From: a virus
Direction: 5' to 3' (one strand)
DNA length: 21,315 nt
IMG/VR virus record: IMGVR_UViG_3300010347_002943
Part shown: positions 1 through 14,859 of the stretch, piece by piece
How the letters are laid out: the number at the start of each line of letters is the position of its first letter
Position numbering within the stretch: the stretch's first letter is position 1
Program-made: the position numbers and the translations under genes
Notes under the pieces: generated by a model
What the model was told of the DNA's origin: nothing
The model's input: only the letters and a program-made list of their open reading frames with translations
Database searches by the model: none

Positions 1-327
1 ACCGATATCAGCGGGGCAACTATCACGGAATGGGCTAACTTTTCTGCCTCCTCGACCCCAGTGACCACTGCCAAGGCCTTCGCCACGGTCACAATGATCA
101 ATGCCACGACCAGCGGCACCACACGGACTGTCAAGATTGGGACAAGCGACAAGCTGGGGCTCAATACCAAGCTCTCCACAAATACTGTGATCATGGTGGC
201 CCTTGATAATGTCCGGGAGACCACCGCCCCGACAGTGACTGTATCCTCAACGGTGCTGGCACAGAACACGATCGACACGAGTACCGCACCGGGCGGCAAA
301 GTGACCAAAGTCTGGTTCATTGTCTGA
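1..327 (+). CDS. 5'-truncated virion-associated protein (Thr-rich, beta-rich; possibly head decoration)
   Basis: Frame 1 is open from base 1 (TDISGATITEWANF...VTKVWFIV*), so the track start at 61 is internal. It lies upstream of the head-tail genes. Function is inferred from position only. Confidence 0.6.
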   Translation, partial: TDISGATITEWANFSASSTPVTTAKAFATVTMINATTSGTTRTVKIGTSDKLGLNTKLSTNTVIMVALDNVRETTAPTVTVSSTVLAQNTIDTSTAPGGKVTKVWFIV

Positions 328-336
328 GGTCAAATC

Positions 337-483
337 ATGCCGATTGTGCCTCTAAAGGGATCTATCAGGATCACCACGGGAATGGTCCTTAGGGCAATGT
401 ATCCAAAAGTCCCAATGTGGCAGAAGGCGCTGATTAGGCTCTATCTGCTATGTGAAAGAATTCAGGGGGTTAAGTTATGGTAG
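337..483 (+). CDS. 48-aa hypothetical microprotein (MPIVPLKGSIRITTGMVLRAMYPKVPMWQKALIRLYLLCERIQGVKLW)
   Basis: Read by hand; it is below the ORF-track cutoff. SD-like GAGGTCA lies 4 nt before ATG337, the ORF fills the intergenic gap exactly, and its TAG (481-483) overlaps the start of the next gene (ATGGTAG). Confidence 0.6.
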   Translation: MPIVPLKGSIRITTGMVLRAMYPKVPMWQKALIRLYLLCERIQGVKLW

Positions 484-905
484 CATCTGGCTTCACAACT
501 CTATGGATGAACACGATTCTCGGACTGATATTCGGTGCGGCGGGCTCTCCATACACCGCTCCGTCGAATCTCTACATAGGCCTGGCCACTGCGGTTGCTG
601 CCGATGGCACCGTGACCGGCGAGCCATCCGGCAACAATTATGCCCGCGTCACGGTCGGGAACAGCAGCACCAATTGGAACACCGCGTCCGGCGGGGTGGT
701 GGACAACAAGACCGCCATCACTTTTCCGCAAGCATCGGGTTCTTGGGGCACGCTGGATACCTTCTTCATCGCCAACCATCTCACGAACGGCGGATCAGCG
801 GTCATCGCCTATGGCACTCTGTCTGAGGAGAAGACCATAGGAACTAATGATACGCCTAGCTTCGCCGCCGGAGCGCTCGACATCAGCCTGACGGCGACTA
901 CATGA
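477..905 (+). CDS. Conserved phage virion/fibre-associated protein (mycobacteriophage Gp80-like family), 142 aa
   Basis: Motifs LYIGL...EPSGNNYARV...N..AITFPQASGSWGT...F...G..L..EKTI..NDTPSFAAGALDI match this widespread family as I recall it. SD-like GGGGTTA; ATGA overlap with the next gene. Confidence 0.75.
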   Translation: MVASGFTTLWMNTILGLIFGAAGSPYTAPSNLYIGLATAVAADGTVTGEPSGNNYARVTVGNSSTNWNTASGGVVDNKTAITFPQASGSWGTLDTFFIANHLTNGGSAVIAYGTLSEEKTIGTNDTPSFAAGALDISLTATT

Positions 906-1321
906 TCAGGCAGATATCGGCTCCCTCCTGGAGGGCCCTTGTTGCAAGCAAGGGCTCTCAACAGGAGCAAGACGCCTTTCTTAGAGATGTCAACGCCTAT
1001 CGGGAAGATTGGGCTTCCCGGAAGCAGGCGCTGACGAACGCATATAAGGGCAACCTGCAAGATCCAGCGTACTTGGCCGCAAAAGCCGCCCTTCAGGCGG
1101 AAGCTGAGAGTCGGCTTCTGGCTTATGGTTTCTACGAGGAAACCACGCCGGAGCAGGACGAGGCAGAGGAAGAGGACAATCTGTCAGATATAATCGGGTC
1201 GATGCCGCCGGCCCGAATCCTGAAAATAGTTACCAGGATAACAAATTATTTCAGATCTAAACAAGTGCCTCCCAAGAAAGCCTTAACAATTGATCAGGTC
1301 CGCGCAAGACTGTTGGCATAG
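902..1321 (+). CDS. Hypothetical helical protein, 139 aa
   Basis: ATGA overlap with the upstream stop, fills the operon gap, acidic linker EQDEAEEED. No recognised family. Confidence 0.75.
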   Translation: MIRQISAPSWRALVASKGSQQEQDAFLRDVNAYREDWASRKQALTNAYKGNLQDPAYLAAKAALQAEAESRLLAYGFYEETTPEQDEAEEEDNLSDIIGSMPPARILKIVTRITNYFRSKQVPPKKALTIDQVRARLLA

Positions 1322-1328
1322 TGGTAGC

Positions 1329-2333
1329 ATGGCTGAAGAATATGTACCGGTAGATCCTATTAACATCACTCCAGCTTCTTCAAAGTCGTGGCTGGATGTT
1401 GACCTGGACACATATATCGCCAGCCTGCCACCTAACGTAACCGGGGTTGCCATTCGGGTATTGAATGCCAGCTCGGGCGGCTGTCCGGCGGGAGTTCGAA
1501 AAGATGGGTCGACCGATGCCCGCACAACAAATGTGACATCCGGCCAGATGTGCTTTTTCTGTGGTGTGTCCTCATCGAAAATATTCGAAATTTATAGCGG
1601 TTCCACGACCTATATAACCGCTTACATAGTCGGATATTTTAAGGATGTTACATTCCTTACGAATGCAACTGATGTAAGCTCCGCAAAAGCGGGCGTATGG
1701 AACGACCTTGACTCCGGGTATAACAATGCAATTGGGCTGATATTGGAGACCAATATAACAAGTTTGAAAAGCTTTGAATTCGGTTTCCGAAAAAATGGAT
1801 CAACTGATAATAGAACCAATGTGGGTGTACGGCGCTGCGGATGTTTCATAATCGGCGCGGATGCGGGCGTGTCGGAGCAGTATATCAGCGGTACCGATCA
1901 AGACACGTACCTCGTGGGGTACATCACCGAAAACGCGACGTTCTATACAAATGCTACCGATATATCCCTTGGCTCCACCGGATCTTACGCGGATTTATCA
2001 GTTGGATCGGCATCGGCGAAAGCCAATCTCATAGAGGTAGTAGCGTCATCGACATATGATTTCGGCCTTCGCAGAAATGGGGCATCAGACGATCTTTACG
2101 AGGGGGCTGCCAGGCACGCCTGCATCCTTGTCGGTGCAGACTCAAGTGGTGTCAGTGAGGGAAAGATCGCCGACACAGTCGTAGATTTCTTCCTTCTTGG
2201 GTACTTCCTGGCGGCTGCAGGCGCCGTAGCACTCGCGGGCCAGATTGCTACAAAATCGGGTCTGGCTGCCGGCACTTCGGTATTGAGGTCGCTGGGCGTC
2301 TTGGGTACTTCCTGGCGGCTGCAGGCGCCGTAG
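1329..2333 (+). CDS. N-terminal fragment (334 aa) of a frameshifted fibre-like protein: three tandem ~95-100-aa beta domains
   Basis: ATG1329 follows the upstream stop (track start 1290 overlaps it). Three internal repeats share G.R..G..D and L.GY motifs. The frame ends shortly after entering the second copy of the 104-bp duplication. Confidence 0.75.
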   Translation: MAEEYVPVDPINITPASSKSWLDVDLDTYIASLPPNVTGVAIRVLNASSGGCPAGVRKDGSTDARTTNVTSGQMCFFCGVSSSKIFEIYSGSTTYITAYIVGYFKDVTFLTNATDVSSAKAGVWNDLDSGYNNAIGLILETNITSLKSFEFGFRKNGSTDNRTNVGVRRCGCFIIGADAGVSEQYISGTDQDTYLVGYITENATFYTNATDISLGSTGSYADLSVGSASAKANLIEVVASSTYDFGLRRNGASDDLYEGAARHACILVGADSSGVSEGKIADTVVDFFLLGYFLAAAGAVALAGQIATKSGLAAGTSVLRSLGVLGTSWRLQAP

Positions 2334-2402
2334 CACTCGCGGGCCAGATTGCTACAAAATCGGGTCTGGCTGCCGGCACTTCGGTATTGAGGTCGCTGGG
2401 CG
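2195..2402 (+). repeat. Exact 104-bp tandem duplication (2195-2298 and 2299-2402)
   Basis: Both copies read tcttgggtacttcc...gaggtcgctgggcg and are identical base for base. 104 is not a multiple of 3. Confidence 0.97.
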
Positions 2403-3409
2403 GGGCCATAATCACCAAATCCGGCCTCCCCGGAGTTGCCAGGGTTTCGAAGGCCATGGCAGGTCTCATCAGCACCAAGACCGGCCTGGCGGGAGCGCTG
2501 GGCAAGTCGATACACGTAAGCGGCGCAATTACGACCATTTCGGGCTTGCAGGGCGGCCTGACCATCAGCCGAATTATAGCCATGGTCGGCCAGATAATCA
2601 CAAGGGCCGGTCTTGCTGGAAGCACCTCGGTGCTAAAAGCCTTATCCGGCTTGATTAGCACTAAAACCGGTCTCTCCGGTATTCTGACGGTCATTGGCCT
2701 TGGAATAGTGAATCTGGCCGGTGCAATCTCAACACGGGCGGGACTCGCTGGTGGTACCTCTGTACAGAGACGCCTGTTGGGGCAAATTGCAACTAGATCA
2801 AGCCTGGCAGGCGCATCCTCCGTATCTCGATCTTTGTCAGGCCTCATCATAACCAATATCGTTTTGGTAGGGGCGGGTCAAGTAGCAAGGGGGCTGGTGG
2901 CGGGTCAAGTAGCAAGGGGGCTGGTCGGTCAGATCGTAACGATATCGACTATCTTGGGAAATTCCAGGGCCTCCAAGGCGCTATCAGGCCTAATCAGTAC
3001 AAAGACTGCCCTAGGCGGGACCCTGACAATCTCTTTCGAGCACATCATAGCTCTTGCAGGCCTGATCAGCACAAAAAGCGGCCTGTCGTCTGGCCTATCA
3101 GTTTTAAGGTCCCTGTTGGGGCAAGTAAGTACATCATCTGGCCTGACAGGTACTCCATCACTGTCCCTGGCGTTGGCTGGCCGGATAGTGACTTCTACAG
3201 TTGCGGATTGCCGTGCATCGGTATCAATCGCTTTGGCGGGCGCCATCTCAACAGCGGCGTCGCTCGTGGGACAGATCAAAGATCTATCCCAACGTGTTAA
3301 ACATGCCACGCGTCTCGATTCAATAACAAAGCGATATGCGCGGATCAGGTCGGAAGCCAGCGGACATGTTAGAATAGATTCTATCTTAAAGCGGTTCGGG
3401 AGGTTTTGA
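2387..3409 (+). CDS. C-terminal fragment of the same fibre-like protein: ~15 copies of a 20-aa Gly/Ser/Thr-rich repeat plus a basic tail
   Basis: Removing one 104-bp copy joins 1329..3409 into a single 1977-nt ORF (658 aa) reading ...TSVLRSLGGAIITKSG.... The TTG at 2387 is probably not a true start. Confidence 0.7.
   Translation: MRSLGGAIITKSGLPGVARVSKAMAGLISTKTGLAGALGKSIHVSGAITTISGLQGGLTISRIIAMVGQIITRAGLAGSTSVLKALSGLISTKTGLSGILTVIGLGIVNLAGAISTRAGLAGGTSVQRRLLGQIATRSSLAGASSVSRSLSGLIITNIVLVGAGQVARGLVAGQVARGLVGQIVTISTILGNSRASKALSGLISTKTALGGTLTISFEHIIALAGLISTKSGLSSGLSVLRSLLGQVSTSSGLTGTPSLSLALAGRIVTSTVADCRASVSIALAGAISTAASLVGQIKDLSQRVKHATRLDSITKRYARIRSEASGHVRIDSILKRFGRF
2872..2925 (+). repeat. Exact 27-bp in-frame tandem duplication (AGQVARGLV x2)
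   Basis: ggcgggtcaagtagcaagggggctggt at 2872-2898 and 2899-2925. Confidence 0.95.
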
Positions 3410-3745
3410 ATGGACGTTTTCTTTGAGGGTAATTCCGAAATTTTGGTGATGAATACAGATTTTGAGTCGCTGGATTCGGCGACACTCATCGAAATTCTGG
3501 TCACGAAACCCTCTGGAGCCGTAGCAGCGTGGCCCGCGGAGCAAGTCGATCCGACTGAAGAAATTTGGGCCGAACTTGGGGTAACCGTGTCCGACCGTGA
3601 TATCACCTATACGACGGACGGTGATGACTTGGATGAACTGGGCACGTACAAGATTCAGGCCCATGTGGAATGGGATGCAGGGGCAAAAGAGTTGCATGGC
3701 CGAATACAGAAGTTTAGGGTCGTTGCTCATCTGCCTGAGCCGTGA
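3410..3745 (+). CDS. BppU N-terminal-like Ig-fold virion protein, 111 aa
   Basis: Pattern ..KPSG....W.A......ITYTT..DDLDELGTYKIQAHVEW.....HG....F.V is typical of stand-alone BppU-like domains. SD GGAGG; starts directly after the upstream stop. Confidence 0.6.
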   Translation: MDVFFEGNSEILVMNTDFESLDSATLIEILVTKPSGAVAAWPAEQVDPTEEIWAELGVTVSDRDITYTTDGDDLDELGTYKIQAHVEWDAGAKELHGRIQKFRVVAHLPEP

Positions 3746-3754
3746 GGAGAACGC

Positions 3755-4225
3755 ATGAACAGCTACGTAACCGACGCAGAGGCCGAAGCCTACTTCGACG
3801 GAGACCCAAGGGCAGACACTTTCCTGGAGGATGAGAACTTTTCCTGGTACCTGGCCAGGGCGACCAAAATAATAGACAGTCTGCCGCTCAAGGGCACAAA
3901 ATACCTACGAGACGGCACACAGGCCCTCCAATTCCCGCGGGAAGACGACGACGGTCATTACGACGCCGACGAGGCAACCGGGTCGGCTGAGGTACCTATG
4001 GCCGTCAAGGAAGCCTGTTGTGAGGAGGCCCTAGCCATCTTCTTACAGGGCACAACCGGCGGGAGGCGAGAATTGCAGGAGGCTGGGGTCCAAAGCTATA
4101 GCATTGGTGGAAAGTTGCAAGAGACTTTCGCTCCGGGCGCGGCTACCAGAACAAAGGGCCTCAGGAGCCCGTACGCGTATCGTTTGCTCTCACACTACAT
4201 CGCTCGGGCGGTGCCGATCATATGA
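3755..4225 (+). CDS. Head-tail adaptor/connector (DnaT-like domain, SPP1 gp15-type position), 156 aa
   Basis: N-terminal NSYVT..EA.AYF, then L..AT..ID, QALQFPR, VP.AVK.A.CE.AL and V.S.SIG: the characteristic adaptor signature. Confidence 0.85.
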   Translation: MNSYVTDAEAEAYFDGDPRADTFLEDENFSWYLARATKIIDSLPLKGTKYLRDGTQALQFPREDDDGHYDADEATGSAEVPMAVKEACCEEALAIFLQGTTGGRRELQEAGVQSYSIGGKLQETFAPGAATRTKGLRSPYAYRLLSHYIARAVPII

Positions 4226-4542
4226 GCCTACTCGATGCTTATCTACCCGCTCTTGGGGAGACAGTGGTCTGGAGGAAAAAGGGCGCGGTCAACGAGTACA
4301 ATGAGCCAACATACACAGAATCTTCTATCACTGTCATTTGGTATGATGATGTCAGAATGATCAGAAATGCCAGTGGTGAAGAACTACAACAGCTAGCTTA
4401 CATTCAGACCACATCGGCAATCCAACCGGGCGATATAATCATAAGGAACGGCTACGCGTGGCCTATCATCGGCATCCTGAAGACACCCCATCCTGATGGT
4501 GAGCAGTTCAGGATCGGAAACCTGGGAGAGATGATGATATGA
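4222..4542 (+). CDS. Head-closure protein (SPP1 gp16-like), 106 aa
   Basis: Follows the adaptor with an ATGA overlap. N.YNEPTY motif, beta-rich, I.PGD.I...G..W.I motif. Confidence 0.75.
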   Translation: MSLLDAYLPALGETVVWRKKGAVNEYNEPTYTESSITVIWYDDVRMIRNASGEELQQLAYIQTTSAIQPGDIIIRNGYAWPIIGILKTPHPDGEQFRIGNLGEMMI

Positions 4543-8700: not shown

Positions 8701-11700
8701 ATTACAGAAGTCGGAAGAATTACTGCGATTATTGACGGCGACATATCCCGCCTCACCTCGGCCCTGAACACTGCCCGGTCACAGGCTACCAACGCCGTCG
8801 CCGGAATCGAGACCGGCATGAAAGACGGCCTAAAGAACGGCCTGGCGGGCATCAACTGGAACGGCTTAGGGATGGACGCCGCGGGAGATTACCTCCGGGG
8901 TATCACCGCCGGCATGGGCCCGATCGGGACCGCTCTTGATGGAGTGGCTACCGCTCTCGGCCCAACCGGCTTAGTTGCCGTTGCTGCCGTCGCGGGCGGG
9001 GCAATCATAGCGAAAGCTGCTTATGATGCCGCTGCTGCATGGGAAGCCGGGATGGCTCAGATCAGCAAGACCACCGGCATTGAAAAGGGTTCGTCCGGCT
9101 TCAACGATCTTTCCGAGGATCTGAAAGATCTGTATGCGACGATGCCGACAACGATGTCGGAAATCCAGAACGTCGCCAAATCCGCCGGCTCCCTGGGAAT
9201 CGAGGAGAGCAGCATAGCAGGCTATACACGCGTCGCCCTTGAGATGGGGTCAGCTTTCGATATTCCTGCAGAAGAAGCGGCGGTAGCTGTCGGAAAGGTG
9301 CAATCCCAGCTCAAAAAGCTTCCCGAAGGAGTGGAAGATTCGGCACAATTCGCCCGGAATTTCGGCTCTGCCGTGGACTTTGCTGGAAACAGCATGAATG
9401 CCACCGAGCAGGAAGTTCTCGATTTCAGCACCCGGGCGGCGGGCGCTCTCTCACTTCTGGGTGGCTCCGCATACGAGTTGGCCGGGTGGGGCGGCGCGAC
9501 TGCCTCAGTGTTCTCCTCTTCCCAATTGGCAGCAGGCTCGTTCAATGCTGCTCTGACTCAGCTTACGGGGACCACCAAAGGCAGCCAGGAGGCGCAAGAA
9601 AAAGCTGCAGAACTCCTAGGCGTAACTTCCGAAGAGTTCATGAAACTGATATCAACAGATCCGACAGATACCATTCTGCGGTTGGGCAACGCGCTGGAAG
9701 AGCTAGATCCTGCAGAAGCTACCAAGGCAGCAGGCATCCTGGGAGGCGGATACGGTGACGACTTTTTCAAGAAGATGATCGGCCACACCGACGAGTGGCG
9801 CGGCAAAATTGAAGAAGTCGTGGCAGCAGGCGAGAAAGGCGAATCGATAGGTAAGTCTTTTGAGGCCGGGTCAAAAGGCGCAAAAGCCGCCATGCAGGAG
9901 CTTAAGAATAGCATCAGCGCCATCCTGATTGACATAGGCGGGCCGATTCGAGACGCGTTCACTCCTCTCCTGGGCGGCCTGGCAGAAGGGCTCAATAAGA
10001 TCCGAGAAATAGGCGAGAACCTCTGGGGACCGCTCACGACCGTCTTATCCCCCCTCACTACTGGAGCGGGCATACTGGCGGAGCACATCGGTACAATGGC
10101 AGGGATGAGCTTGGATGCTCTCGTATTGGCCTCCCAGGCCATAAGCAAGGCATTTGAGCTGGGCGGCAAGTACGCCGAAGCGGTCAAGGCAGAGATCCTT
10201 GAGATCATCGAGAATAGCGGGCCATTCAAGACCGTATCTGGCTACGTCGATGACATCAGTGACGCCTTCCAGCGGCTTTATGACAAAGTTGCCGATGTGG
10301 TCAGCAAGATAGCAGATGGCCTATCCAATGCGATACCAACCGCGCTCAAAGGCACCGGGGATGCCCTGGGAACTCTGGCAGAAAAGGCGGGCCTGGGTGG
10401 GGTGGCGGATGCTGCCGGAGGAGTGTTTGACTTTTTCGGAGACGTGAATGCCAGGGTTTGGGGCAAAGAGACCGGGAAAGAATATGAGGATGGTTTCAAA
10501 GAAGAAGTCGAAGACGGAGAGCTAACCGACGCGGTTATCAAAAAGCTTACTGGAGACGAAGCAAAAGACGCTCTGATGAAGGCAGGGAAGAATGCCGCTG
10601 ATATCTATGGAAGTGAGTTCGCGGCTCAGATGGCACTATCGAATCTGACCGGTGAAGAGCTTCTGGCCATGATCAACAGCCAGAGCACGCCCAACAAAAA
10701 GAAGATGATCCGCGAGTTCGAATATATGGATCATCAGTACAAGATGCTGATCACCAAAGGCGGGTCAGGCTACTACACGTCCCTCTATTCAGGTGATAAG
10801 CTCCTCGGAACGAAAGACTTCTTAGGAGATTACGCAAAGTTAGACCCCGTAGCCGCATTTCAGGAGATCACCGGAGCACCTGCCCCTGAAGAAGGTACCG
10901 CAGCTTATTACGGCTTGATGGGCGACCTCCTCCGGCAGCACCAGGCAGAGTTAGCTGAGATTAACGCACAGGAACCCATTAGCCTGTGGGATGATCCAGA
11001 CAATCAAAGATCCTGGATTAAGTACATGGATGAAAACAAGGATCTGGCAGAGCGAGCTGGCGATGAGATAGTATATGAGCTATATAACGCCCAGGCCAAA
11101 GCCATAGAGGCCAACGATGCCACGCTGCAAGAGAGCTTTTCCATAGTAATGAAGGGGTTGGCTTCTCCAGGTTCGGTATCTTCGGATCTGTTCAATATGG
11201 CACTGGCTGACATCATCGATGCTGGGTTTGTATCCGAAGGTCACAGGGCGGCCATGCAGGAGATCGCCATAGAGGACGCTGAGGAGTACAGAAAGAACCT
11301 GGTGGGCGGGATGAAAATAGAATTACCCTCCCTGGCTGACATAATCGAAGATCCGAGCAAAATAAAGGGTAGCTTCGAAAATATGCTCAAGTTTCAGGAA
11401 GGCTATCTTATCCCTAGAATCTCGGAAAATATGGAGGATGTGAATAGCCTTCTCAGCGAGGGAGTAAGTGAAGATGCCCTTTACGAAGCATACATAAAAC
11501 CGCTGTATGCCATCTATGAGTATCTGCCCTCCACCCTCCAGGACCTGCTTGGTGATCTGGAATCTGGAGTCATCGACCTGGCCAAATTCGGCGAATTGTA
11601 TTATACCGATGTTGCCGGCAAAATTGATGAGAAAGCAGCCGCGGCGCTGGAAGATATCAAATCAGCGAACGCGAGGTTCTACGGGGAATTTCTATCCGAC

Positions 11701-12099
11701 AATGCCAGCTGGCAAAATTACGTAAACGAATATGGGGGCTACATCGGCCCAACTAAGCTTTACGGTGGATATAGAGACGCAGTTGATGCTGAGATAGCAG
11801 CCAGCCAGGCGATCAATTCTAAGTACAATATAGCAACGGTGGGCTCAATTGGCATTGTTGCAGAGCTTGACACTTCCGAGGCTCAAACCGCAACGGATGA
11901 GCTGGTTGATAAGATCCAGACAACTCAGCCAACCATGAAATTGAATTTGGATACTAATGCCGCATATACCGCATGGGGCCACTTGGTTCAGGACATGGAG
12001 AACCTGACCATCCGGCTCCCCGTGGAACTCGACATAAAAGTTTATACTCCAGAAATCCGGGCGCTGGTCGAAGACGAGATCAGGGCGGCGTTGGCATGA
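8701..12099 (+). CDS. Tape measure protein (TP901-type core), ~1132 aa
   Basis: Core region WEAGMAQISKTTG...EIQNVAKSAGSLGI...ALEMGSAFDIPAEEAA; long and Ala/Gly-rich helical. The frame is open upstream of ATG8818 with a typical TMP N-terminus (TEVGRITAIIDGDISRL); probable start ATT8701. Confidence 0.9.
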   Translation: MTEVGRITAIIDGDISRLTSALNTARSQATNAVAGIETGMKDGLKNGLAGINWNGLGMDAAGDYLRGITAGMGPIGTALDGVATALGPTGLVAVAAVAGGAIIAKAAYDAAAAWEAGMAQISKTTGIEKGSSGFNDLSEDLKDLYATMPTTMSEIQNVAKSAGSLGIEESSIAGYTRVALEMGSAFDIPAEEAAVAVGKVQSQLKKLPEGVEDSAQFARNFGSAVDFAGNSMNATEQEVLDFSTRAAGALSLLGGSAYELAGWGGATASVFSSSQLAAGSFNAALTQLTGTTKGSQEAQEKAAELLGVTSEEFMKLISTDPTDTILRLGNALEELDPAEATKAAGILGGGYGDDFFKKMIGHTDEWRGKIEEVVAAGEKGESIGKSFEAGSKGAKAAMQELKNSISAILIDIGGPIRDAFTPLLGGLAEGLNKIREIGENLWGPLTTVLSPLTTGAGILAEHIGTMAGMSLDALVLASQAISKAFELGGKYAEAVKAEILEIIENSGPFKTVSGYVDDISDAFQRLYDKVADVVSKIADGLSNAIPTALKGTGDALGTLAEKAGLGGVADAAGGVFDFFGDVNARVWGKETGKEYEDGFKEEVEDGELTDAVIKKLTGDEAKDALMKAGKNAADIYGSEFAAQMALSNLTGEELLAMINSQSTPNKKKMIREFEYMDHQYKMLITKGGSGYYTSLYSGDKLLGTKDFLGDYAKLDPVAAFQEITGAPAPEEGTAAYYGLMGDLLRQHQAELAEINAQEPISLWDDPDNQRSWIKYMDENKDLAERAGDEIVYELYNAQAKAIEANDATLQESFSIVMKGLASPGSVSSDLFNMALADIIDAGFVSEGHRAAMQEIAIEDAEEYRKNLVGGMKIELPSLADIIEDPSKIKGSFENMLKFQEGYLIPRISENMEDVNSLLSEGVSEDALYEAYIKPLYAIYEYLPSTLQDLLGDLESGVIDLAKFGELYYTDVAGKIDEKAAAALEDIKSANARFYGEFLSDNASWQNYVNEYGGYIGPTKLYGGYRDAVDAEIAASQAINSKYNIATVGSIGIVAELDTSEAQTATDELVDKIQTTQPTMKLNLDTNAAYTAWGHLVQDMENLTIRLPVELDIKVYTPEIRALVEDEIRAALA

Positions 12100-12554
12100 T
12101 CCACGACTGGGATACCCACTACTGGCTGGCAGAGTTGCCGGACGGTGAATGGATCTCTGCCGAAGAGCACAGCAGCGCAGAGCCAATCTTCCAGACCGCG
12201 AAAAGAATCCAGATAGTCCCCATCTCTACTTCCTCTTCCCAGGCCATTCTGGATGCAGAGGTTCCCGAAGGCTACACGGCCTTTTTGCGAACTGATAGGA
12301 TAGAGATAGTGATGAGGGGGCCGGATGCAGAGCAGGCCCCTAAGCTGATCTACGTAATGGCAATGGAAAGAGGCCATTGGCTGGAGCCTGGCCGGATAGC
12401 ACTCTCAACTGTCCCTCTTTTAGATGGTTTTAGGGCCGAGCTGAGGATCTTCAGGGACGGCCACGGCGAGGTGGATTTTATATCATCTGACAATTTTATT
12501 AGTGAGGTAACGAATATGGATGAATACGATTTATATAGATTTATAAAGGTGTGA
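12096..12554 (+). CDS. Hypothetical protein, 152 aa
   Basis: ATGA overlap with the TMP stop (track start 11973 lies inside the TMP). No recognised family. Confidence 0.7.
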   Translation: MIHDWDTHYWLAELPDGEWISAEEHSSAEPIFQTAKRIQIVPISTSSSQAILDAEVPEGYTAFLRTDRIEIVMRGPDAEQAPKLIYVMAMERGHWLEPGRIALSTVPLLDGFRAELRIFRDGHGEVDFISSDNFISEVTNMDEYDLYRFIKV

Positions 12555-12556
12555 AA

Positions 12557-13165
12557 ATGTCAGTTCATATCAGGCGATACTATGGTTCCGGGCCGTCCGA
12601 GGTCGATATCTCTGGCGGGGAGAATCCAATAGGATTGAAACTGAAAACATATGACGGGAACTCAAATGAGACCTATCTGTTCAATGCCACGCATCCAGTG
12701 CCAAAACCTACGATTGGCAATAAACACAGCTTTACGGCCACAATAGCTTTGTACAGCGACGTTCTGGGCTCCGAGATCTACAGCGACCCCAAGATTTACT
12801 CAGGCGGCGTCCCCGCGGTCCCGAGCCCTAACCCCAAAGGATATGTGGCCTGGACGGGGGCCCAGATCTTCGTGGCTGACGACACCAACGACACCTACAC
12901 ACAAGCCACCGGGGTCCAGGACGATTCAGGAACAGAGATGGTAGCACAGGGTCTGACAGCTTCGAAGACTGACCTCCTGGCGACCTACGACAGCAGCAAC
13001 ATGAAGAGCGTGGGCCTGGCCGGTGGGGTTGCTTCGATAGGTCCGCTGGGGTCGGCTCAAAGGATTTCAAAGTACGTCAGGCTCCAGGGCACTCTCGGTA
13101 CGAGCTGCTCTCCTGGCTCGACCGTACCTGCAACCATCTACATGAGATACAGCGTTACGAGCTGA
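12557..13165 (+). CDS. Beta-rich putative virion protein, 202 aa
   Basis: SD AGGTG before ATG12557. PVPKP...HSF, YTQATG...SG, S.YVRLQ and PG..PAT..MRY motifs resemble a family seen in tail clusters; no name assigned. Confidence 0.65.
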   Translation: MSVHIRRYYGSGPSEVDISGGENPIGLKLKTYDGNSNETYLFNATHPVPKPTIGNKHSFTATIALYSDVLGSEIYSDPKIYSGGVPAVPSPNPKGYVAWTGAQIFVADDTNDTYTQATGVQDDSGTEMVAQGLTASKTDLLATYDSSNMKSVGLAGGVASIGPLGSAQRISKYVRLQGTLGTSCSPGSTVPATIYMRYSVTS

Positions 13166-13170
13166 GGCAC

Positions 13171-14859
13171 ATGATTATTGGCAAAAGTCGGATCGGTATT
13201 GGCCGGGTTGGTATGGTCACGGCCAGCTTCGAGGAGCCCTCGATTCTGGCTAATATTACCATCCTGGGCACGGAGAGCCCTTACGTCTACGCCAACATGA
13301 GCATAGTAGACGTCTACCCTCTCTCTGTCCTGGCTAATATGGACATTGACGCTTACAATCATCGGGAAGTCCTGTCCAATATGTCCATCCTTGGAAGGAT
13401 ACCGGTCCCGATTTCTGCCAACATGAACATCTCTGATAGGGTGGCTAAGGGCGTCCTGTCCAATATGTCTATCCTTGCGGTTCAGTACCGGCAGGTGGCT
13501 GCAGCCATATCCATTCTCGGGCTGGTCACCAGATCGGTCAGGGCCAATATGTCCATCCTGGAGAGCATAGATCGATCTGCTCAGGCCAACATGAGCATAG
13601 CTGACCTCATAGAACAGTGTGCCAGCGTGGCCATGAGCATATCCGGTTCTTTTGATATCGAGGCCCTGGCTAACTTCACAATCTCAGACCTGCGGGCCAG
13701 CACCACCACAGTCAGCATGGACATAGTAGATAACCACTATTGGGCCATAGGTCCGGAGGGCGGAGTCCTGGACCTGTCCGGCAAAGTGGCCGATCCTAAA
13801 CCGGACGGATTCGGGATCGAAGCATCCAAGACCGGGATGCTGGAAGGCCGGAGGGTAAACCTCCGGGATAAGGGTATAAAAGGTGGAGAATATACTTTCT
13901 ACGTATATTTAGACAATGACAGCGACCGACAAGCATTCCAGAAGGTCGTGAACAATGACGCTAAGGATTATGTGCTTCATATAGGCAGATCTGATAGATT
14001 TTATTATATTAAGAAGATGGCAACCAATCCCGAGAAGATTAAGGTTGCCCGAGGGCCTGTGCAACGGGTAACATGCTGGATGGAAGATCCTTGCATGTAT
14101 CACTATTGGGATCAGGGGGGTGACCTGGGAATATGTGCATTGCCTCATGATAGCACCTATAAATTCAACTATGGCACGGCACCAACACCAATCCTTTTTA
14201 AGATCGGTGGGTTCTATTCCGGTGGGCAGCTCACATCACCCTATGTGAGCGTCTGGGATGGGTCAGAGGAGAGCAGGCTCTATATCGGGCCCGGGCTGCT
14301 GTCCAACGAGTGGGCAGAGCTCACTCTCGACGGCTGGCACAAGAAGTACCTGAAGCATACCTATTCAGACGATTATAGCACTAATAACAGCTGGCAGTAT
14401 GATGCTGTGCAGAGCGGATGCTCCCTGTCAGGAGGGCAGGTCTCCGTGCCTTCGGGCGGATGGTTCTACTATAAATTCCAAGGGCATCCCCTGAAGGAGA
14501 ACATCAGGCTCCTGGCCACGATTACAAAGGCGGGATCTCCTATGATCCAGTACTCAACCGACGGCACCACCTGGACCACGTCCATCGCTGCAAGCGAAAT
14601 CGTGAGTGGCCAACATACAGAGTACTATCTGACAGGCACAGAGAAGATTAGTTCCGTCTACGTTCGGTTCTACAGCCCGGTTGGATCGAGCATGACAGTG
14701 CAGGACGTCTCTTTTTCGATGGACCGGGACATCTCAGCTCAGTATGACCAGCTCCCGACCTGCCCGGCCCAGGAATCCCGGAAGCTCAGGTTCGAGGGCT
14801 CTGGATCGGCCAAAGCGAGGTTGCAGACCACATTCCGCTCCAGGTGGTACGCGCAGTGA
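13171..14859 (+). CDS. Distal tail (Dit)-like protein with N-terminal 14-aa repeats and a probable carbohydrate-binding insertion, 562 aa
   Basis: Directly precedes the Tal-like gene. Dit-like features: V...TCWMEDPCMY, N.GTAPTP..F.I, and C-terminal LP......KL.F......F..RW. Confidence 0.65.
   Translation: MIIGKSRIGIGRVGMVTASFEEPSILANITILGTESPYVYANMSIVDVYPLSVLANMDIDAYNHREVLSNMSILGRIPVPISANMNISDRVAKGVLSNMSILAVQYRQVAAAISILGLVTRSVRANMSILESIDRSAQANMSIADLIEQCASVAMSISGSFDIEALANFTISDLRASTTTVSMDIVDNHYWAIGPEGGVLDLSGKVADPKPDGFGIEASKTGMLEGRRVNLRDKGIKGGEYTFYVYLDNDSDRQAFQKVVNNDAKDYVLHIGRSDRFYYIKKMATNPEKIKVARGPVQRVTCWMEDPCMYHYWDQGGDLGICALPHDSTYKFNYGTAPTPILFKIGGFYSGGQLTSPYVSVWDGSEESRLYIGPGLLSNEWAELTLDGWHKKYLKHTYSDDYSTNNSWQYDAVQSGCSLSGGQVSVPSGGWFYYKFQGHPLKENIRLLATITKAGSPMIQYSTDGTTWTTSIAASEIVSGQHTEYYLTGTEKISSVYVRFYSPVGSSMTVQDVSFSMDRDISAQYDQLPTCPAQESRKLRFEGSGSAKARLQTTFRSRWYAQ
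13240..13743 (+). repeat. Twelve tandem 14-aa (42-nt) repeats, consensus S-V-x-A-N-M-S-I-L
   Basis: SILANITILGTESP / YVYANMSIVDVYPL / SVLANMDIDAYNHR / EVLSNMSILGRIPV / ... / TTTVSMDIVDNHYW; exact 14-aa spacing with no indels, DNA diverged. Confidence 0.9.

Follow-up and report, generated by a model that had tools for sequence, protein, structure and literature searches.

The 21,315-nucleotide (nt) contig analyzed here over its whole length (the window; IMG/VR record IMGVR_UViG_3300010347_002943) derives from an uncultured tailed virus, and its gene block at positions 477-3745 is likely to encode a chain-like neck fibre of the beads-on-a-string type, in which Gp80-type subunits are carried on one rope protein. 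In the proposed arrangement, the rope would comprise a folded N-terminal head, about 15 extended docking units of 20 amino acids (aa) each and a basic C-terminal tail, and acidic Gp80-family subunits would bind along it as dimers. Each 10-aa half-unit would supply the strand that completes the beta-sandwich of one subunit, one 20-aa unit would correspond to one dimer, and the repeat count would set the length of the fibre, here about 15 dimers. By analogy with phages Bas63 and A1002, the C-terminal end of the rope would be virion-proximal, placed at the neck via the 111-aa protein encoded at 3410-3745 on the head-tail adaptor (3755-4225), and the pseudo-trimeric head would form the distal tip, likely as a surface-binding domain. 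New in this system are the long rope (15 units here; 20 and 21 in relatives), the natural single-chain pseudo-trimer that heads it, and the siphovirus-like genome in which it occurs.

The 142-aa product of 477-905 matched the Pfam family PF23140 (Gp80, GP4 fibre I protein) over profile positions 2-127 of 128 with an expectation value (E) of 3.1e-24, and a profile including this protein retrieved gp80 of phage GP4 in PDB 8JOU (8jou_a) at E 2.7e-50, together with 9c39_K and 9mt4_I. Judged by these profile matches, 477-905 encodes a full-length Gp80-family protein; it is the sole Gp80-like open reading frame (ORF) of the window. Searches of the PDB sequences with phmmer, using the Gp80-like, rope and 111-aa proteins as queries, returned chance matches only. 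An earlier note on this DNA had proposed a compact Gp80-like gene at 477-905, which the end-to-end Pfam match bears out, and had placed it in one operon with a repeat protein. The latter proposal is likewise supported by a tightly packed block on the + strand, in which neighbouring frames overlap, start over stop, at 477/483 and 902/905, and the TGA at 3407-3409 is followed immediately by the ATG at 3410.

The periodicity of the rope was evident from residue autocorrelation of the repeat region, which reached 0.27 at lag 20 and 0.19 at lag 10 over a background of about 0.09; the best-lag score lay 8.7 standard deviations above shuffled sequences. A repeat hidden Markov model (HMM) identified 15 units with successive spacings of 20, 20, 21, 21, 20, 24, 20, 20, 29, 20, 24, 20, 20 and 20 residues. 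The consensus of the unit is L-[AS]-G-x-I-x-T-[KR]-[ST]-G-L-x-G-x-x-[ST]-V-x-[RK]-x, with G3 and T7 invariant and I5 and L11 conserved in 13/14 and 12/14 units, respectively, and both halves of the unit follow the pattern L-x-G-x-[IV]-x-[TV]. The 319-aa repeat region is rich in Ser, Gly and Ala and contains 26 basic residues, 3 acidic residues and a single aromatic one, giving an isoelectric point (pI) of 12; the final 45 residues of the rope have a pI of 11.6. Three features described earlier, namely some 15 copies of a 20-aa repeat made of two 10-aa halves, the scarcity of aromatic and acidic residues, and the basic tail that follows the repeats, were thus confirmed. A similar basic tail with the same KRFGRF ending is present in the related contigs L010 and L015, whose ropes carry 20 and 21 units. 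The ropes of these two relatives are exactly one 20-aa unit apart, so the unit of change is 20 aa. The pI of 12 for the rope against 4.2 for the subunit in this lineage further favours the proposed fibre.

Contrary to the earlier description, the repeats do not constitute a separate gene: as the reading frames indicate, the repeat protein is the C-terminal half of one 658-aa product encoded at 1329-3409, which is interrupted by a 104-base-pair (bp) duplication, and the range assigned earlier to the repeats (2232-3277) spans the resulting frameshift. Tandem Repeats Finder reported the two copies at 2195-2298 and 2299-2402 (period 104, 2.0 copies, 100% match). Since 104 is not a multiple of three (remainder 2), the additional copy shifts the frame and splits the rope gene into the ORFs 1329-2333 and 2387-3409. 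The first of these stops 35 bases into copy 2, and the repeat frame, which is open from 2159, translates copy 2 in just the way the first ORF translates copy 1; removal of one copy yields the continuous 658-aa protein. Contig L046 (JGI Ga0116190_1009603), which is 99.65% identical, has one copy only and an uninterrupted frame of at least 417 aa that equals the joined reading save for five substitutions and four differences at the contig end. Intact proteins with head, repeats and tail also occur in distant relatives (740 aa in L010, 760 aa in L015), and the homolog P0001 has 676 aa and a different C-terminus. L046, together with P0001, P0004 and L010, leads us to conclude that the rope is encoded by a single gene.

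The 104-bp duplication is either an assembly artefact or a rare variant, a question that bears on the state of the gene and not on the identity of the module. We regard it as somewhat unlikely that the duplication is real, in which case the fibre gene would be broken into a head-only product (1329-2333) and a poorly initiated rope fragment, or could be restored through -1 slippage at G_GGA_AAG (2158-2164), which leads to the frame open from 2159. The perfect match of the two 104-bp copies and the presence of a second perfect duplication of 27 bp nearby make the gene appear slippage-prone, and the heptamer is found exactly where the -1 frame opens. L046, however, has one copy and an open frame at 99.65% identity, and contigs of this population tend to stop within the repeats (L001 in the duplicated unit, L046 where unit 6 switches to unit 1), which points to assembly trouble. 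As for the heptamer, it is probably a coincidence, because it encodes a Gly-Lys pair conserved in the family, and slippage at this site would insert about 45 out-of-frame residues. The 27-bp duplication (2872-2925) is in frame, so that the same gene holds two perfect duplications within 700 bp. In the last ~30 bases of L046 (a - strand read, reverse-complemented), the sequence of unit 6 changes to that of unit 1 (STKSGLAAG), suggesting recombination or graph tangling between units in this population. In practical terms, such repeats break assemblies and may generate false frameshifts.

The first 300 residues of the rope protein were modelled by AlphaFold2 from 41 sequences as three jelly rolls, with a predicted local distance difference test score (pLDDT) of 92.2 and a predicted template modelling score of 0.88. 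The best matches of this model in VIA-align 2 were engineered single-chain trimers of C1q, APRIL/BAFF, adiponectin and Cbln1 (Z 12.0-9.6 over 277-285 residues), namely 5hzf_A (Z 12.0, root-mean-square deviation (rmsd) 4.6, 283 aligned), 4zch_B (Z 10.9), 4dou_A (Z 10.8) and 5kca_A (Z 9.6). The next matches, all single domains, reached Z 7.3 or less, and Foldseek agreed with this result. Since the single-chain trimers scored far above the single domains, the head is predicted to be a natural single-chain pseudo-trimer of C1q/TNF-like jelly rolls. The likeness to C1q/TNF trimeric heads, including the engineered 5HZF, 4ZCH and 4DOU (Z 10.8-12.0 over ~280 residues), is one of fold and arrangement only, with three jelly rolls around a (pseudo) threefold axis: identity to the structural matches was 6-8%, and a Pfam search of 1290-2333 and of P0001 found no family and no C1q/TNF sequence match. 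In contrast to the engineered single-chain trimers, the head is natural and made by internal triplication, its modules sharing 25-36 identical residues with one another.

The family of this head domain is large, with 1,809 representatives at E < 0.001, and has no Pfam model. A region with lag-20 periodicity was found in 32 of the 153 proteins examined, nearly all of them members of the head family, and mostly directly followed the head. In three bacterial metagenome-assembled genome loci, the head domain occurs with neither rope nor Gp80. In L012 (3515-5518), the same rope repeats stand behind a different N-terminal domain of ~440 aa that replaces the pseudo-trimer, and P0005 (885 aa), with a different N-terminal domain and rope repeats, looks like the same type. 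The occurrence of the head without a rope elsewhere, and of the rope with another head in L012, indicates that head and rope are separable modules.

The earlier note had called for a survey of Gp80-like gene neighbourhoods for adjacent periodic proteins, and such a survey revealed a conserved pairing. Of 33 IMG/VR Gp80 loci, 23 had enough downstream DNA, the other 10 contigs ending too soon, and in all 23 informative loci a protein with lag-20 periodicity (z 11-26) is encoded next to the Gp80 gene or not far from it. These loci represent three lineages, with 86-88%, about 42% and 40% Gp80 identity. Periodic partners were also found in phage GP4, where gp79 (325 aa) adjoins gp80 and shows lags 20 and 10, in phage C72C1 (z 6.8) and, with a weaker signal, near the Gp80 genes of cta39025 and PVJ1. 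Moreover, gp11 of Octadecabacter virus DB2 is periodic at 22 aa and terminates, as do the ropes of L019 and C72C1, in a W-rich region; from its sequence it is probably a rope as well. The only case with no rope candidate was phage KKP_3916. P0064 has no IMG/VR relatives.

Several of these genomes show further peculiarities. DB2 gp11 (L003 7065-8591) is annotated as 'ribonuclease E' and contains about ten acidic repeats of 22 aa, and DB2 has two tandem Gp80-like genes. In Siphoviridae sp. cta39025 (L039 3590-4372), two Gp80-like domains are joined in one 260-aa protein annotated as 'b-glycanase', and the protein after it starts with about six 20-aa units, which are followed by a long Gly-rich region. 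In L019-L037, the gene after the 194-aa rope encodes a protein of 500-830 aa with a 17-aa period (N-T-x-x-G type) that looks like a separate classical fibre.

A periodic thread donating strands to Gp80-like subunits, as postulated in the earlier note, agrees in kind with the structures determined by cryogenic electron microscopy for GP4, Bas63 and A1002; the mechanism is right in kind and already published, hence not new, and for the present rope and subunit the interface is proposed by analogy. In passages of the Bas63 report (PMC12609058), whisker dimers with the fold of GP4 fibre 1 are arranged end to end, 'such as beads on a string', on the N-terminal rope of an Ig-like (immunoglobulin-like) collar protein; the rope passes through grooves of the monomers and completes their incomplete sandwiches, and the N-terminal extension, which carries two dimers, stops short of about residue 50. 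In A1002, the rope domain of gp39 augments a beta-sheet in each of eleven dimers, and the fibre-dock domain of this protein comprises 226-268 resolved residues for the 11 dimers (PMC13730344); from these published numbers we calculate 20-24 aa per dimer. Fibre I of GP4 consists of five gp80 dimers on a separately encoded rope, with gp77 as the collar (PMC13730344), and PDB 8JOU contains ten gp80 chains and three gp77 collar chains. Taken together, the 20-aa unit of change, the 20-24 aa per dimer in A1002 and the two-half structure of the unit suggest one subunit per 10-aa half and about 15 dimers, rather than one subunit per repeat as initially assumed. The repeats would indeed serve as the thread, which is, however, the C-terminal half of a headed 658-aa protein and not a whole protein.

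The closest relative by subunit family is fibre I of the Ralstonia podophage GP4, which has the same PF23140 subunit, a rope encoded as a separate gene beside the subunit gene, and in gp79 the same 20/10-aa period. The gene for gp77 lies close by in GP4, as does that of the 111-aa protein here, but the latter shows no match to PF23148 (Gp77). In GP4, which is a podophage, five dimers are resolved, and the presumed GP4 rope (325 aa) has neither a pseudo-trimeric head nor detectable similarity to the rope of the window, whereas the window virus is siphovirus-like and carries the module between the major capsid gene and the head-tail adaptor. In Bas63 / Sf14 (Escherichia myophage, Felixounavirus), dimers of the Gp80 fold are likewise held on a rope at the neck, and the rope has its C-terminus on the side of the virion. 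The Bas63 rope is a short N-terminal collar extension for two dimers, while that of the window forms a protein of its own (658 aa, 15 units) with a presumed distal head. The order rope, 111-aa protein, adaptor matches that of Bas63, where rope and collar form one protein, and supports the proposed fibre. The Pseudomonas podophage A1002 (nozzle-rope gp39, gp40/gp41 dimers) resembles the fibre proposed for the window in its long rope with 11 dimers, its folded distal N-terminal cap and its virion-proximal C-terminal end. It differs in that the rope is part of a split nozzle protein, two subunit species are used, the cap is one Ig-like domain instead of a triple jelly roll, and the docking region, as seen in the KPP25 orthologue, has no significant periodicity. 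KPP21 (LC064302) is a Luzseptimavirus and, unlike KPP25, no relative of A1002. The polarity of the Bas63 and A1002 ropes, the position of the 111-aa gene right after the tail and the fusion of its orthologues to the adaptor in L010 and L008 (see below) all point to a fibre whose tail lies at the neck and whose head forms the distal end.

Two further systems are similar in principle or appearance. In chaperone-usher pili, too, an incomplete beta-sandwich is completed by a strand of another polypeptide, but each subunit donates its N-terminal extension to the next and a chaperone and an usher are needed, whereas here a single thread would be shared by all subunits. Families of pilins, chaperones or ushers were not found in the window, and the module is not a member of this class. 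The Anabaena myophage A-1(L) (gp82-gp81-gp80) has a beaded neck fibre of ~100 nm with ~16 beads, which are trimers joined head to tail with no thread, and its gp80 is an unrelated protein. A head-to-tail trimer chain of the A-1(L) type was rejected for the present module, the subunit family being unrelated.

A number of observations weigh against the proposed fibre. The rope gene is frameshifted in this contig. AlphaFold2 gave a rope model with a pLDDT of only 36.5 overall and 26-46 across the repeats, although the run, in which rope and 111-aa protein were read through the TGA, had alignment rows for the 111-aa part only, so that the result for the rope carries little weight. The window repeat HMM did not detect the ropes of GP4, C72C1 and L019; at the level of sequence, ropes of different lineages appear to have period, composition and gene position in common, with no demonstrable homology. 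A general charge complementarity of rope and subunit was rejected, as it holds only in some lineages. The assignment of GP4 gp79 as the rope, whose sequence is not in the PDB, follows solely from its adjacency to gp80 and its 20-aa period and is accordingly putative. In the A1002-type rope of KPP25 (ORF005), the sequence showed no significant period, and hence not all ropes are periodic; L047-L049, relatives of P0038, encode distant head-and-repeat proteins with an 18-aa period and have no detectable Gp80 neighbour. Finally, the 111-aa protein has no Pfam match and matches neither PF23148 (Gp77) nor BppU_N. A pattern search of IMG/VR for the C-terminal half of the rope yielded no relatives.

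These points leave some room for the repeats to fold by themselves into a monomeric shaft, resembling a two-sided beta-solenoid or a beta-roll, in which every unit would contribute one coil of 20 residues. This shaft would bear the head, the Gp80-like protein then being an unrelated neck or capsid decoration. The two 10-aa halves, the Gly residues at presumed turns and the one conserved face per strand would suit such a coil equally well, the rope HMM detects no homology to the ropes of other lineages, and the contact between rope and subunit is putative. We nevertheless consider a solenoid improbable: Gp80 genes have periodic partners in no fewer than five unrelated lineages, solved structures show proteins of the Gp80 fold using such threads, and the very basic, non-aromatic, Ser/Gly/Ala-rich composition offers little core; AlphaFold2 also built no solenoid, which is weak evidence since the rope had no alignment. 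A homotrimeric shaft, which the earlier note had named as a refuting case, would be a triple beta-spiral or beta-helix like those in the classical fibres of phages and adenoviruses. Periodic Gly/hydrophobic repeats are typical of trimeric shafts, but this reading is very unlikely, because the head is already a complete pseudo-trimer in one chain (Z 12.0, 283 aligned, rmsd 4.6), so that three chains would bear three heads, and the Pfam search detected no trimerisation or intramolecular chaperone domain. The single-chain head instead fits one chain per fibre, as in the monomeric thread of the proposed beaded fibre.

The proposed fibre genes are embedded among structural genes, and all structural genes of the window lie on the + strand (Table 1). 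The near-identical contigs L001 and L006 reach further upstream and show the order scaffold, major head protein, 218-aa protein and studied block, which places the block between the major capsid gene (seen in L001) and the head-tail adaptor. The 218-aa protein (L001 1815-2471; window 1-327), whose gene separates that of the major head protein from the small ORF, matched no family and is possibly a decoration protein of the capsid. Downstream of the block follow the head-tail adaptor (3755-4225), connector proteins, two tail-tube paralogues, the tape measure protein (8818-12099), hub proteins and a beta-helix tailspike. With tail tube and tape measure genes present and no sheath gene in the window, the genome is siphovirus-like. 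A DNA comparison of window positions 1-4300 with 50,697 phage records gave no match.

Table 1 Features of the proposed fibre block and its flanks in the window.
Feature	Position	Strand	Remarks
48-aa small ORF	337..483	+	overlaps Gp80-like start; open 47-48-codon frame in 15 related contigs
Gp80-family fibre subunit ('bead'), 142 aa, pI 4.2	477..905	+	Pfam PF23140, E 3.1e-24
139-aa conserved protein between subunit and rope genes	902..1321	+	positional ORF in L008, L010, L014, L015
Rope N-terminal head, predicted single-chain pseudo-trimer, three jelly-roll modules	1329..2228	+	AlphaFold2 and structure searches
Perfect 104-bp tandem duplication, 2 copies, frameshifting	2195..2402	+	Tandem Repeats Finder
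Rope region, 15 units of ~20 aa, pI 12	2232..3292	+	coordinates include extra 104-bp copy
Perfect in-frame 27-bp tandem duplication in unit 9 (giving 29 aa)	2872..2925	+	
Basic rope C-terminal tail (45 aa, pI 11.6) and stop codon	3272..3409	+	proposed virion-proximal anchor
111-aa beta-rich protein, candidate collar or fibre adaptor	3410..3745	+	adjoins rope stop codon
Head-tail adaptor (Ad1 type)	3755..4225	+	PHROG 477, E 5e-14; Pfam PF20557, E 6.5e-15

Among the small proteins around subunit and rope, the product of the 48-aa ORF is identical in L001 and L006 and 38-42% identical in 13 contigs whose Gp80 is 86-88% identical, with a conserved N-terminal MPIVPL.GSI and a C-terminal KLW. The 139-aa protein had no Pfam, PHROG or Atlas match and no fold lead; its gene is absent in L012, where the rope gene stands directly after Gp80. 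For the 111-aa protein, the earlier label of a BppU-like Ig protein was not confirmed: besides the missing Pfam match, profile comparisons were negative (hhalign against gp77, probability 0.1%) and the fold model, from the same run with a pLDDT of 36.5, was poor. A feature-based lead from the Atlas language model pointed to a cluster with BppU_N in 13% of its members, and the label stays unconfirmed. In L010 (6806-7615) and L008, the orthologue of the 111-aa protein continues in frame, with no stop codon, into the head-tail adaptor. A GGAGG and an ATG still precede the adaptor part of the fused frame, and both the fusion and a separate adaptor may be made, as far as the sequence tells. The 111-aa protein is a candidate collar or fibre adaptor, a role that fits its position beside the adaptor and the in-frame fusion in L010.

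A second occurrence of the same gene logic at 12557-13743, also suggested earlier, did not withstand analysis, as the 204-aa protein encoded there (12551-13165) is not Gp80-like. The 562-aa protein that follows (13171-14859) has an N-terminus with about twelve 14-aa repeats of the A-N-M-S-I type, and its autocorrelation at lag 28 was read as two 14-aa units.

Beads-on-a-string fibres with a strand-donating rope are known from podophages and myophages, and the window would extend this range to a siphovirus-like genome and to much longer threads. Going further, ropes could constitute a broad and unnamed class of evolvable rulers that gain and lose units singly (15, 20, 21), with the length of the fibre, in Gp80 dimers, written in the gene; here, the head would provide a trimer-type tip on a monomeric fibre, drawn from a family of at least 1,800 cluster representatives with no Pfam model that is joined to ropes in about one fifth of its top 150 matches and is swapped in L012, and such a fibre would be undescribed on a siphovirus-type virion. 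We hold this wider view to be possible rather than probable. The natural single-chain C1q-like head on a monomeric thread is a candidate receptor-binding tip. As a rule for annotation, a 20-aa period in two halves of 10 aa, seen in a protein encoded next to a PF23140 gene, would point to a fibre of the beads-on-a-string type, and the number of dimers could be predicted from the count of its repeats. The A1002 paper does not use the word 'repeat' (PMC13730344) and the Bas63 passages are silent on periodicity (PMC12609058), so that, as far as these texts go, the 20-aa period may not have been described before as a sequence signature. With its help, fibres of this type could be identified in viruses that have not been cultured.

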